Positions 2,089-10,651 of a stretch of 17,836 nt of DNA are shown piece after piece (the stretch's first letter is position 1; every line of letters starts with the position of its first letter). The stretch lies in IMG/VR virus record IMGVR_UViG_2554235189_000012, positions 1 through 17,836 of that record. One strand, given 5' to 3'. The notes beneath the pieces were generated by a model. That model made no database searches, had not been told where the DNA came from, and saw nothing but the letters and a program-made list of their open reading frames with translations. The position numbers were made by a program, and so were the translations under genes. This DNA comes from a virus (lineage: Duplodnaviria > Heunggongvirae > Uroviricota > Caudoviricetes).

Positions 2089-2099
2089 TGGATTTGCCC

Positions 2100-3005
2100 C
2101 TATATTTCCAGACATCTGTTATCACTTAACCCATTACAAGCCCGCTGCCGCAGATATTCCCGTGGCGAGCGATAACCCAGCGCACTATGCGGATGCCATT
2201 CGTTATAATGCTCGAACGCCTCTGCAAGGTTCTTTGCTGCCGTTAACCCGTCTGGTTTGGGCATGATACTGATGTAGTCACGCTTTATCGTTTTCACGAA
2301 GCTCTCTGCTATTCCGTTACTCTCCGGACTCCGCACCGCCGTGTTCTTCGGTTCAAGTCCCAACATCCGGGCGAACTGGCGTGTTTCATTAGCCCGGTAG
2401 CATGAACCATTATCCGTCAGCCACTCCACTGGAGACGACGGAAGATCGTTGCCGAAGCGGCGTTCCACCGCTCCCAGCATGACGTCCTGTACTGTTTCAC
2501 TGTTGAAGCCGCCGGTAGTCACCGCCCAGTGCAGTGCCTCACGATCACAGCAGTCCAGCGCGAACGTGACACGCAGTCTCTCTCCGTTATCACAGCAGAA
2601 CTCGAACCCGTCAGAGCACCATCGCTGATTGCTTTCTTTCACGGCCACTCTGCCTGTATGTGCCCGTTTCGATGGCGGTACAGCAGGTTTTCGCTCAAGC
2701 AACAGCGCATTCTGGCGCATGATCCGGTAAACACGTTTGGCATTGATCGCAGGCATACCATCAAGTTCTGCCTGTCTGCGAAGCAGCGCCCATACCCGAC
2801 GATAACCATACGTGGGCAGCTCTCCGATAACATGGTGTATACGGAGAAGCACATCCGTATCATCAGTGTGACGACTGCGGCGGCCATCCATCCAGTCATC
2901 GGTTCGTCTGAGAATGACGTGCAACTGCGCACGCGACACCCGGAGACAACGGCTGACTAAGCTTACTCCCCATCCCCGGGCAATAAGGGCGCGTGCGCTA
3001 TCCAC
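2100..3005 (-). CDS. insD: IS2 transposase OrfB (DDE integrase-type catalytic domain)
   Basis: 301-aa [26 protein letters not shown]... recognised as IS2 InsD; overlaps the 3' end of insC as expected for an IS3-family -1 frameshift arrangement. Confidence 0.9.
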
Positions 3006-3328
3006 TTTTTTGCCCGTCCATATTCAACGGCTTCTTTGAGGAGTTCATTTTCCATCGTTTTCTTGCCGAGCAGGCGCTGGAGTTCTTTAATCTGCTTCAT
3101 GGCGGCAGCAAGTTCAGAGGCAGGAACAACCTGTTCTCCGGCGGCCACAGCAGTAAGACTTCCTTCCTGGTATTGCTTACGCCAGAGAAATAACTGGCTG
3201 GCTGCTACACCATGTTGCCGGGCAACGAGGGAGACCGTCATCCCCGGTTCAAAGCTCTGCTGAACAATTGCGATCTTTTCCTGTGTGGTACGCCGTCTGC
3301 GTTTCTCCGGCCCTAAGACATCAATCAT
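2963..3328 (-). CDS. insC: IS2 OrfA (HTH DNA-binding protein)
   Basis: 121-aa [44 protein letters not shown]... recognised as IS2 InsC; the ORF-track entry starts 15 codons further upstream. Confidence 0.9.
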
Positions 3329-3419
3329 CTGTTCTCCAATGACTAGTCTAAAAACTAGTATTAAGACTATCACTTATTTAAGTGATACTGGTTGTCTGGA
3401 GATTCAGGGGGCCAGTCTA

Positions 3420-3424
3420 GTCTG
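3420..3424. repeat. IS2 target-site duplication GTCTG (right copy)
   Basis: See left copy at 2084-2088. Confidence 0.8.
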
Positions 3425-3550
3425 CATGTGCTATCTGCGCCCATATCATCCAGTGGTCATAGCAGTCGTTGATGTTCTCTGCTTCGATAACCCTGTCGAA
3501 TGACTCTCCATTCCATTCACCTGTGACTCGGAAGTGCATTTATCATCTCC

Positions 3551-3577
3551 ATAAAACAAAACTCGCCGTAGCGAGTT
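3551..3577 (-). terminator. Putative intrinsic terminator on minus strand (stem AACTCGC/GCGAGTT, loop TACG, then TTTGTTTTAT)
   Basis: 7-bp inverted repeat followed by a U-rich tract on the minus strand, 43 bp downstream of the 3620-3811 gene. Confidence 0.5.
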
Positions 3578-3619
3578 CAGATAAAAGAAATCCATCAATT
3601 GGTTAGGGTTTTTGTAATT

Positions 3620-3811
3620 CTACGAATTATGTTGTTTTTTAGCTTCAGCTTTCCATTCATCAAAGGCAGTGTCTTTGTTCATGGTGCTGATATTGATCTT
3701 ACGGTCAATATCATATACACGCCACTCACCGTTGGGCCTCTCTTCGCATCTAACTAAGTATGAATTGCCATTAATATCTATGCGTCTGTCTATTTGCATG
3801 AACATTTTCAA
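3620..3811 (-). CDS. Hypothetical small protein (63 aa)
   Basis: ORF MKMFMQIDRRIDINGNSYLVRCEERPNGEWRVYDIDRKINISTMNKDTAFDEWKAEAKKQHNS; AGAGGA upstream of a TTG/ATG start cluster; preceded by an AT-rich region with a TATAAT box and followed by a terminator. Confidence 0.45.
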   Translation of the reverse strand: MKMFMQIDRRIDINGNSYLVRCEERPNGEWRVYDIDRKINISTMNKDTAFDEWKAEAKKQHNS

Positions 3812-3874
3812 TTTTCGAATCCTCTTTAATATGCATTTTTTGCTATTTCAGTAGTTTACTATTGATGAGGCGTT

Positions 3875-3880
3875 ATTATA
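3875..3880 (-). promoter_or_regulatory. Candidate promoter -10 element TATAAT on minus strand, upstream of the 3620-3811 gene
   Basis: Consensus TATAAT on the minus strand in the AT-rich 3812-3922 intergenic region; no well-spaced -35 (TTGCAT lies only 12 nt upstream), so weak evidence. Confidence 0.3.
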
Positions 3881-3922
3881 CACACTTCATTAATGCAAGC
3901 ATCTTTATGCTATGCTACTAAT

Positions 3923-4204
3923 TTAGCAATTGATATTCACCTTTATCGCGTATACCTTTACCGGTTTATCACCGAAGTGGGGGTGTGTGATTGTTTTCAC
4001 TTCATATCCTCCATACGGAACATCAATTCTGCGACTGGAGTCGTCGCGCTTCGGATATCCCTTTGTGATAATCAGGCGGTCATACTCCCGGAACATAATT
4101 CGCTTATTCCAATAGTCATTACACAGGCGATACTCTTCCGTTTTCTCCCCGCGAATCATGGCATCGAAGTATTCACCTTTGACGGCAAGTTGTAGGTTAG
4201 CCAC
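3923..4204 (-). CDS. ASCH/PUA-like small protein (93 aa)
   Basis: GTG start preceded by AGGAGG at 6-nt spacing; motif YFDAMIRGEKTEEYR resembles the conserved N-terminal signature of ASCH-domain proteins; start overlaps the stop of the upstream gene. Confidence 0.45.
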   Translation of the reverse strand: MANLQLAVKGEYFDAMIRGEKTEEYRLCNDYWNKRIMFREYDRLIITKGYPKRDDSSRRIDVPYGGYEVKTITHPHFGDKPVKVYAIKVNINC

Positions 4205-4499
4205 GGTTAACCTCCTGCGGAGTAGCCTTTACAAGCACTGGTGTAAATCCATCTTCATTAAGGTTATGAATATAGACTTCTGTTCTCCTGCGCTCTTCAA
4301 CGTTTAATATTGTTTCTGGATCATAAACCCATACTTTCATTCGACTATTCCATGAAGAAATCGCTTCAGATCTAGTTCGTTTTTCTGGTCCTTGGGCACC
4401 ACATTTGCATGACACATAGCGCATTTTCCCTCTGATACTGAATGAGTATCCGATATTAAGCACAGTGGAACCACAGAATGGGCAGCGATATAGATTCAT
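4197..4499 (-). CDS. Lar-family restriction-alleviation-like protein with C-terminal extension (100 aa)
   Basis: N-terminal CPFCGS...(22 aa)...CKCGAQGP...AISSWNSR matches the Lar-family zinc-ribbon pattern; start overlaps upstream stop (ATGA). Confidence 0.6.
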   Translation of the reverse strand: MNLYRCPFCGSTVLNIGYSFSIRGKMRYVSCKCGAQGPEKRTRSEAISSWNSRMKVWVYDPETILNVEERRRTEVYIHNLNEDGFTPVLVKATPQEVNRG

Positions 4500-7346: not shown

Positions 7347-7829
7347 TTATTTGATAAGAAGTGAAGGTTTCCCAACCTTGAGTTGAGCGCCTGGGATATT
7401 TATTCCTGCTTTTAGTTGGTGCTTGATTGCCAACTTGTCGGCTTTAATTGTCGTTTCAAACTCAACGTATTCAGGAGGAATGGCGCTTGAGTCGATGATT
7501 TCTACAGTTTCTGACGGTTTGCGGATTGTTACCTGGTGAATACCTGCTCGAATCTTTTTCTTGCCAACCATTTCAAGCGATGACGCTATATATGCCATAA
7601 TGCTATCAATCTTATTTTGAATTACTGCTGCTCGTTCATTCAGTGACTTTGCCTCGTCCTTGAGGCGTTCAGCATAACCAGATTCATTTTTAATAATGGC
7701 AAGAAGTTGCTCTATTTTATCGGTAAATTCTCCTTCCATGCCTTCTATTGTGTCAGCAATCATCTCTGGCTCTAAATCTGAATCCATCAGCTTTGCGTAT
7801 TCATTGGCTATTTCATACAGTTTGCTCAC
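7347..7829 (-). CDS. Mu Gam-like / Gp157-like protein (~160 aa)
   Basis: Directly downstream of recT; N-terminal predicted coiled coil and C-terminal G-x-V-x-I-R-x-P pattern resemble Mu Gam / siphovirus Gp157 family proteins; GTG start at 7829 preferred because GGAGG lies 6 nt upstream. Confidence 0.4.
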   Translation of the reverse strand: MSKLYEIANEYAKLMDSDLEPEMIADTIEGMEGEFTDKIEQLLAIIKNESGYAERLKDEAKSLNERAAVIQNKIDSIMAYIASSLEMVGKKKIRAGIHQVTIRKPSETVEIIDSSAIPPEYVEFETTIKADKLAIKHQLKAGINIPGAQLKVGKPSLLIK

Positions 7830-8724
7830 TGGCAACCTCCAGTTTCGCTTTGCATTCTATGTAAATGGCTTGTACGTTCTGCTGCAATTTCATTCCAGAT
7901 GTCAGGCGATATGCTTCTGCAAAATATCGCTTCAAATCATCCATGTTTTCTGCCTGAGCCATTTCATCGCAAAGAAGTTGTGCTTTATCCATTATTTCCT
8001 GCTGGCGTTTCCGTTCATCTTCGCGGATATCTTCCTCTGATTTGTGCGGCATAACTGGTTCAGTCCATACACCTTCTTCTTCGTTTAGTACGTGAATAGC
8101 ACTATCAAGACGTGATGCCTTAGGCCAATACTTGCTTGCACGCTTTACGACCGTCTTTCGCGCCATCTCATTCCAGTGATTTACCCATGGTCCTTTATCG
8201 CTGAATGCCGCCTTGCTTGTTTTCCTTACAGCCTCAATTTCAGCCAGACTCATCTCTTCCGTTAGATAATCACCTGCTGGCGTCTTAACTGTGCAGTAAA
8301 CGCCAACGATATCACCACGATCACCGAAGGCGTTGTATTTATGGGTTGGTGCTTTATCAAGCCCGTTTGACTCATAGGTATCGTTAGCATGAACAAGTTT
8401 TGCCTGACCCCATGAGATAACACCAGACTCCATTGCAATATGGAGCAATCCCATATAACTGATATCAAGGCACACCATGCCGTCGCGCGGAACCAGATAA
8501 GCCAGTTTGCTAGCCGGGTTTAAGGTGATGCCGATCGCCGCAACATTGATGATGGCGTTCTGTGCGCTGGTTGGATTTGCCAGTGCCGTTTTAGCCAGGT
8601 AATCATTTTTCTGGAAATACTGAATTGCAAACTGGCTTTCCTTAGCCCATGTCACCGTCTGTTCAGTCAATGCTCCGCAGAATAACTGCTCCTGCTGTTT
8701 AACGAATTCAACGATATTGCTCAT
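7813..8724 (-). CDS. recT: RecT-family single-strand annealing recombinase
   Basis: 303-aa ORF; motif GPWVNHWNEMARKTVVKRASKYWP closely parallels GPWVTHWEEMAKKTAIRRLFKYLP of E. coli RecT; GGAG RBS; position matches bet of lambda. Confidence 0.8.
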   Translation of the reverse strand: MSNIVEFVKQQEQLFCGALTEQTVTWAKESQFAIQYFQKNDYLAKTALANPTSAQNAIINVAAIGITLNPASKLAYLVPRDGMVCLDISYMGLLHIAMESGVISWGQAKLVHANDTYESNGLDKAPTHKYNAFGDRGDIVGVYCTVKTPAGDYLTEEMSLAEIEAVRKTSKAAFSDKGPWVNHWNEMARKTVVKRASKYWPKASRLDSAIHVLNEEEGVWTEPVMPHKSEEDIREDERKRQQEIMDKAQLLCDEMAQAENMDDLKRYFAEAYRLTSGMKLQQNVQAIYIECKAKLEVASEQTV

Positions 8725-10378: not shown

Positions 10379-10651
10379 TTACCTCGCTGTCAGTTGTTTT
10401 GATTTCCGGTAGCCTGCCGCGTAAAGAGCTACGTTTGGCAGGCAAATACTTCCACTGCATTCATCTGCCTTCTTGCAGCGAAGGCCTCCGAGTGATGCTG
10501 CTTTATCTGCTCTGACGCAACCAGAGAGCTTTAGCGCAATTTTTCGCGCCAGTCGCTGCTCTTGCATTGCCTGTTCACGTTGAGCCTGTCTGCGTGCTCT
10601 GCGGCGATTTCTGGCGTTATCGTCAGCCAGATATGTAATGACTACTGCCAT
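10379..10651 (-). CDS. N: N-like transcription antitermination protein with arginine-rich motif
   Basis: 90-aa ORF with GGAGG RBS; Arg-rich N-terminus (NARNRRRARRQAQREQ); central and C-terminal segments (ARKIALKLSGCVRADKAASLG..., VALYAAGYRKSKQLTAR) resemble phage 21 and P22 N proteins as recalled; lies downstream of pL/nutL. Confidence 0.75.
   Translation of the reverse strand: MAVVITYLADDNARNRRRARRQAQREQAMQEQRLARKIALKLSGCVRADKAASLGGLRCKKADECSGSICLPNVALYAAGYRKSKQLTAR

Follow-up and report, generated by a model that had tools for sequence, protein, structure and literature searches.

The segment at positions 3594 to 3931 of a lambda-like prophage sequence is, judging from its nucleotide comparisons, best explained as a horizontally acquired accessory-gene cassette, that is, a moron in the comparative sense, within the normal range of lambdoid mosaicism. 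Its only gene codes for a protein of 63 amino acids (aa). The window referred to throughout is the whole stretch of DNA analyzed (17,836 nucleotides, IMG/VR record IMGVR_UViG_2554235189_000012). The features of the locus, all on the minus strand, are the following.

3420 to 3539, minus strand, orf55-like gene, the downstream neighbor (PHROG 676; homologue of HK022_33 and lambdap35; truncated by IS2)
3549 to 3578, minus strand, intrinsic-terminator-like hairpin and U-run (backbone, common to HK022 and 933W; mosaic junction)
3594 to 3931, minus strand, inserted module of 338 bp (from HK022/933W alignments; replaces ca. 30 bp including the tL4 hairpin)
3620 to 3811, minus strand, gene for the 63-aa protein (TTG start; PHROG 16329)
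3820 to 3824, minus strand, Shine-Dalgarno sequence GAGGA, 8 nucleotides (nt) upstream of the TTG start (read from the sequence)
3812 to 3922, minus strand, AT-rich leader of 111 bp, GC content 29.7% (always with the ORF in close relatives)
3875 to 3880, minus strand, candidate −10 hexamer TATAAT, a perfect match (AATAAT in clade 2, see below)
3889 to 3922, minus strand, imperfect RNA hairpin directly after the ASCH stop, overlapping TTGCAT (RNA fold of 3812 to 3925)
3923 to 4204, minus strand, ASCH-domain gene, the upstream neighbor (PHROG 625; lambda ea8.5 position; last in the coupled block)

Prophage setting

The window starts with a cscB-type sucrose permease gene (1 to 1248) that leads into the end of the prophage, and this arrangement is best explained by integration of a lambda-like prophage at a KplE1-type site, on its csc/dsdC-side end. 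Prophages of this type use the argW site; no tRNA gene or fragment was detected at 1249 to 1777, between cscB and the excisionase gene. The latter, of the TorI type, is found on the minus strand at 1778 to 1978. Next comes a complete IS2 element (2089 to 3419, 1,331 bp, with insC/insD on the minus strand), flanked by a 5-bp target duplication, GTCTG, at 2084 to 2088 and 3420 to 3424. The orf55-like gene is split by this element, and a truncated ORF of 40 aa remains at 3417 to 3539. Between the orf55 remnant and the torI-type gene there is also a strong terminator-like hairpin on the minus strand at ca. 2022 to 2046 (GCCGCCTGATGGCGG and then TTTTTTATT), which together with the hairpin at 3578 to 3549 makes up a series of terminators ahead of xis.

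The early-left genes, all on the minus strand, run in the order orf55-like gene, 63-aa ORF, ASCH, Lar, Ead/Ea22, and DUF7739 and on to RecT (7813 to 8724), with the N gene at 10379 to 10651 and the cI, cII, O, and primase-helicase genes further to the right than N. From this order, the 63-aa ORF belongs to the distal end of the pL operon and comes shortly before xis. There are overlaps between the ASCH, Lar, and Ead/Ea22 genes (4197 to 4204 and 4496 to 4499), which are thus coupled, in agreement with the original prediction, which was made from the letters of the window and had described a coupled operon upstream of the gene.

A 338-bp insert at the tL4 site

By megablast, the sequences on both sides of the insert (3420 to 3593 and 3932 to 4210) matched lambdoid and P22-like phages by the hundred at 94 to 96% identity, HK022, 933W, and CUS-3 among them, and this backbone was present in 3,089 of 5,426 complete Escherichia coli genomes. 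The uninterrupted full stretch was found by megablast in only 26 to 27 E. coli genomes and one phage record. When the middle part was searched alone, it was recovered from 30 of the 5,426 genomes and from Stx2_16002, while HK639 matched at 72% identity over the ORF only. Alignment with HK022 and 933W set the junctions at 3593/3594 and 3931/3932. At this site, both phages read ...GTGAATATC-GACAATGAATGACAATCCTCGCATTCGCGG-GGATTTCTTTTATCTGAACTCGC..., and the window swaps those 30 bp for 338 bp. The new segment contributes the final two codons of ASCH together with its stop, then the leader and the 63-aa ORF, and lastly 26 bp of 3′ sequence. The HK022 int-xis record annotates the tL4 terminator exactly at the replaced segment (X51962, 2417 to 2445). 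The insert had a GC content of 34%, whereas that of the phage genes on either side was ca. 45%.

A perfect 8-bp inverted repeat, ATCAATTG (3594 to 3601) and CAATTGAT (3927 to 3934), coincides with both insert junctions and may reflect chance or recombination microhomology.

Homologous cassettes in other phages

We retrieved 32 IMG/VR loci, which fell into three groups, namely, clade 1 (the window type), clade 2, and the HK639 clade. Within clade 1, the leader was constant, its variation being confined to a homopolymer of A6 to A9 (3836 to 3841 in the window) and a few point changes. In clade 2 (loci L027 to L035), the ORF was 98% identical and the leader 93% identical, and the hexamer read AATAAT. 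These loci diverged 14 bp past the stop, with no terminator after the ORF and more same-strand genes following. One of them (L027) had a different upstream gene, joined ca. 40 bp inside the 3′ end of ASCH. An inverted copy of the junction motif was also seen ca. 80 bp downstream of the ORF in this clade.

In the HK639 clade, an identical leader of 125 bp, starting with a hairpin, stood behind three different upstream genes. It contained TTGCCG and AATAAT at a spacing of 17 bp (9 of 12 positions matching the sigma-70 consensus), and the ORF had its own strong terminator. The HK639 protein HK639_31 (L004, 2982 to 3248) is annotated with 88 aa, but alignment of the family, together with a Shine-Dalgarno sequence GGGGTG, points to a product of 62 aa starting at MKKF, so that the annotated N-terminal extension would fall in the leader. 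Two further, more distant homologues differed in their surroundings. P0009 had an upstream gap of 124 bp and a strong terminator 17 nt after the stop, while P0008 overlapped the upstream gene by 4 nt and is therefore an ordinary operon member in its phage. The HK639 and P0009 leaders, otherwise unrelated, both open with CGCAAC(C)TGATA(T)GCCA after the upstream stop (L006, 4875 to 4900; L039, 2872 to 2895), which may be a shared cassette boundary. From the comparison of lineages, the family tends to occupy the position of last gene before a terminator, often with a long leader, without being autonomous everywhere.

The 63-aa ORF as a gene

The gene predicted at 3620 to 3811 was found as described, on the minus strand, with a TTG start. 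The window protein, the HK639 core, P0008, P0009, and the clade 2 protein aligned over their full lengths without gaps; the TTG of the window aligned with ATG or GTG starts of the homologues, and the stops were aligned too. Against the diverged homologues, synonymous change was saturated (pS of 0.77 to 0.83), compared to pN values of 0.21 to 0.39, and between clades 1 and 2, the dN/dS ratio was ca. 0.2. By these substitution patterns, the 63-aa ORF is a genuine coding gene under purifying selection. NCBI PGAP annotates it in none of the 30 RefSeq E. coli genomes holding the insert (e.g., L003, 4121 to 4503), an annotation gap in which a gene under purifying selection has been missed in all complete E. 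coli genomes with the insert. A homopolymer near the stop (3635 to 3640) was variable, and the database variants P0003 and P0004 had frameshifted C termini.

As for RNA, a search of Rfam at an E value of ≤1 gave no family match, and no covarying structure was visible between the clades, the folds of the leader and the 3′ sequence having z scores of ca. −2.

The leader and its candidate promoter

A gap of about 110 bp, rich in AT, had been noted upstream of the gene, and its exact extent from the ASCH stop (3925 to 3923) to the ORF is 111 bp. Given its length, long for a gene that is merely cotranscribed, and the fact that it is kept with the ORF, an autonomous promoter or regulatory region fits better than a passive spacer. 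The consensus TATAAT that had been pointed out is indeed a perfect hexamer (3880 to 3875). Of the claimed −10 box and promoter, it is this hexamer that was observed; no −35 hexamer was found at 15 to 19 bp, and clade 2 reads AATAAT. The promoter scan found no two-hexamer sigma-70 site in the leader; the sole −35-like hexamer, TTGCAT, was 12 bp from the −10, and the TGn of an extended −10 was absent at this TATAAT when read from the sequence. The motif was not enriched, with 4 copies in the window versus 8.3 expected, and by a rough estimate the chance of one TATAAT on one strand of 111 bp of 70% AT is ca. 0.2. Promoter-like sites in the region were likewise below the shuffle expectation (2 versus 3.8).

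The 45 nt upstream of the −10 were identical in clades 1 and 2, with eight changes in the rest of the leader. For this invariant stretch, we estimated roughly a P value of 0.01, recent recombination being an alternative explanation. No promoter motif was conserved across lineages, the window leader and those of HK639 and P0009 not being alignable with each other. The hairpin at the start of the leader (3889 to 3922) is not a canonical terminator because it lacks a U-run. Three loci considered as natural promoter-swap variants were uninformative; one (H83) was just an IS66 truncation of the leader, and the other two (H84 and H85) were deletion remnants.

A terminator borrowed from the backbone

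The hairpin and U-run that had been predicted as the terminator of the gene are present (8 bp, GAACTCGC-TACG-GCGAGTTT and then TGTTTTATGG), but they are not the gene's own, since the element is shared backbone and clade 2 has no terminator. The hairpin lies outside the insert and occurs in HK022 and 933W without the 63-aa gene. By RNA folding, HK022 has a tandem pair of hairpins, of which the window keeps just the second; thus, the insert replaced the tL4 hairpin, and the hairpin now found after the 63-aa gene belongs to the backbone. Among the IMG/VR copies, four different genes were found downstream of this backbone hairpin, so that it is a junction at which mosaicism recurs. Nevertheless, a usable terminator, borrowed from the backbone, would appear to be available downstream of the insert.

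Expression of the cassette

The moron-like layout originally proposed held as far as the extra DNA, the deviant GC content, and the coinherited leader are concerned, while the gene lacks a terminator of its own. Expression independent of pL, as also proposed, is not implied by the anatomy, because neither the terminator scan nor RNA folding revealed any terminator-like element separating the gene from the upstream pL operon. We think that the locus is probably a mosaic accessory cassette expressed mainly by read-through from pL, with the addition of an unproven weak promoter of its own. The cassette would have replaced a tL4-type hairpin lying between the ASCH and orf55-like genes in HK022/933W, and the certain route of expression would be pL read-through after induction, given that the gene is co-oriented with the operon, that there is no terminator from ASCH to the ORF, and that an N gene is present. 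With tL4 removed, any pL transcript that reaches ASCH should run through the 63-aa gene. Antitermination of the polymerase by N is established in lambda, and after induction N-modified polymerase would also pass the remaining hairpin, while transcripts that are not antiterminated would end there (3578 to 3549). In the lysogen, weak transcription from the consensus −10 may come in addition, without the involvement of pL; it would start near 3866 to 3871 and have a 5′ untranslated region of ca. 55 to 60 nt. Real expression in lysogens from the TATAAT promoter is, however, doubtful on the sequence features described above, which are also our basis for weighing read-through from pL against a promoter of the gene's own.

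Alternatively, the cassette might be a true autonomous moron, with the TATAAT at 3880 to 3875 acting as the −10 of a functional sigma-70 promoter that is either −35 independent or aided by the AT-rich upstream DNA. The gene would then be expressed from the repressed prophage, with transcripts ending at 3578 to 3549, and its product would be a lysogenic-conversion factor serving, for example, superinfection exclusion, antiphage defense, or host fitness. Such a reading agrees with the presence of extra DNA of deviant GC content between genes that are adjacent in relatives, as in the published description of morons (PMC3594210), and with the consensus −10, the AT-rich DNA upstream of it, the coinherited leader with its 45 invariant nucleotides, the terminator that immediately follows in three lineages (window, HK639, and P0009), and the 9-of-12 promoter match in the HK639 cassette. 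Nevertheless, we consider it rather unlikely, in view of a hexamer that is not enriched, is accompanied by neither a −35 at 15 to 19 bp nor TGn, is not called as a promoter by the scan, and has its first base changed from T to A in clade 2. Moreover, no alignment is found among the leaders of these three lineages, the terminator is backbone outside the cassette and is absent in clade 2, and P0008 shows translational coupling with the gene before it.

Other explanations concern the nature of the insert itself. The perfect repeat on both junctions, together with the inverted motif copy in clade 2, could be taken to indicate a miniature mobile element, the 338 bp moving as a unit by means of 8-bp terminal inverted repeats. 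This is very unlikely, though, since there is neither a target-site duplication nor a transposase, close copies are always at the same site beside ASCH, and no unrelated site in the 5,426 genomes carries these 338 bp with identical termini. Three bases of one repeat arm belong to the backbone, and four inverted pairs of at least 8 nt occur within the 421 bp examined, so that chance alone readily yields such pairs; the pattern is accounted for by ordinary mosaic recombination at short homologies. A shade more improbable still is an antisense or type I toxin-like locus, in which the true product would come from the plus-strand ORF at 3599 to 3757 (52 aa, with a hydrophobic N terminus) or the minus-strand gene would be under the control of an antisense RNA. 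In its favor, there is a 9-of-12 promoter-like site on the plus strand (3687 to 3714), but such matches are below the shuffle expectation, and the substitutions follow the pattern expected if selection acts on the minus-strand frame. In terms of a type I toxin-antitoxin or small RNA locus, we found no Rfam match and no conservation of the antisense ORF in the HK639, P0008, or P0009 homologues. Least probable of all, in our view, is that the 63-aa ORF is spurious and the insert consists of noncoding filler, a regulatory RNA, or a remnant. The absence of PGAP annotation in all 30 RefSeq genomes, the TTG start, the short length, and the lack of a curated family would be compatible with this. Against it stand the saturated synonymous sites with far lower replacement change, the absence of indels, and the aligned starts and stops among four diverged homologues, as well as the strong Shine-Dalgarno sequence at an ideal spacing, the confident fold prediction, the unexceptional leader fold, and the Rfam result.

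Protein family and predicted structure

The lack of a recognizable family, also part of the original prediction, was confirmed, in that Pfam, NCBIfam, and PADLOC gave no match even at E values of ≤1 or ≤0.1. The only family match was to PHROG 16329 (E value of 8.5e−49; residues 1 to 63 against profile positions 1 to 63 of 63), a phage protein family annotated as “function unknown.” A phmmer search against 1.84 billion representatives returned only six real relatives, and weak repeat-like matches to β-hairpin repeat proteins (P0010 to P0012) were judged to be compositional or convergent. When a profile was searched against 5.8 billion proteins, the family amounted to 13 clusters, none of them usefully annotated. 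All relatives came from enterobacterial phage or prophage contexts, and none were found among GTDB species representatives.

Structure prediction, suggested originally as a check, gave a confident β4-α model (AF2 in single-sequence mode, pLDDT of 85.9), with four β-strands and then a C-terminal α-helix, yet there was no informative structural match, and a PDB profile search with the protein found none either. The protein has acidic and basic residues in equal numbers and hence no net charge, is without a hydrophobic segment, and is predicted to be soluble; a catalytic signature is absent. By default, we infer a small soluble binding or modulating protein. Other nonessential early-left lambdoid genes are thought to act by binding and modulating host or phage proteins, and the 63-aa product would most likely do the same. 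The predicted model also resembles Rhs-toxin immunity proteins such as TriX in fold, but weakly, and we take this as no more than a hint. It seems quite improbable that the β4-α protein is the founder of a new, very rare lysogen-expressed family, made in the repressed prophage from its own −35-less promoter as a small protein inhibitor (for example, a superinfection exclusion or antidefense factor or an immunity-like binder).

Comparison with known systems

Among lambdoid phages, morons were reportedly first described for HK97 gene 15 and HK022. They are defined as extra DNA of deviant GC content, with a promoter and a terminator of its own that allow expression from the repressed prophage (PMC3594210). 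The window locus resembles them in that the insert is extra DNA between genes that are adjacent in related phages, has a deviant (lower) GC content, and consists of a single small gene with a noncoding leader that holds a −10 consensus and with a terminator directly downstream. It differs from them in that the terminator is backbone and not inserted DNA, the candidate promoter has no −35, and the cassette sits inside the early-left operon in the same orientation. Because of this last feature, it would be expressed on induction in any case, and because the terminator is borrowed from the backbone, the locus departs on this one point from the strict sense of a moron, in which the terminator is part of the inserted DNA.

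The early-left genes of the b2/ea region in lambda and HK022 (ea8.5, ea22, orf61/63/60a, and lambdap35) provide the other obvious comparison. In lambda they are transcribed from pL under N antitermination, and in HK022 by means of put RNA. The 63-aa gene shares with them its position between exo/bet-type recombination genes and xis, its strand, its small size, and its mosaic distribution, as well as functions that are largely unknown. Unlike these genes, which are mostly tightly packed or coupled, it has an AT-rich leader of 111 bp, and it has no sequence similarity to any of them. The locus thus works like a moron and equally like any early-left accessory gene.

In HK022 itself, the tL4 region is the exact insertion site. 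The tL4 U-tract and the second, downstream hairpin are kept in the window, while the tL4 stem (CCTCGC/GCGGGG) is gone, with the cassette in its place. HK639_31 is the closest parallel as a gene, with a homologous protein (66% identity over a 62-aa core) and an equivalent location, close to the int end of the early-left operon. Its leader and terminator are kept behind three different upstream genes, and the window gene is also cassette-like. On the other hand, the HK639 leader is unrelated in sequence, has a better promoter match, and is followed by an ORF annotated with 88 aa and by a strong terminator of its own.

The moron class has repeatedly yielded exclusion, defense, and virulence functions, and expression of the 63-aa gene in lysogens, if it occurs, would bring this class another small effector encoded by a prophage. 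Altogether, the finding is one of ordinary lambdoid mosaicism with an uncharacterized, very rare small-protein family. The locus shows how a cassette enters a phage operon, one hairpin of a tandem terminator pair being replaced and the other borrowed, and this blurs the textbook image of a moron that brings both its own promoter and its own terminator.
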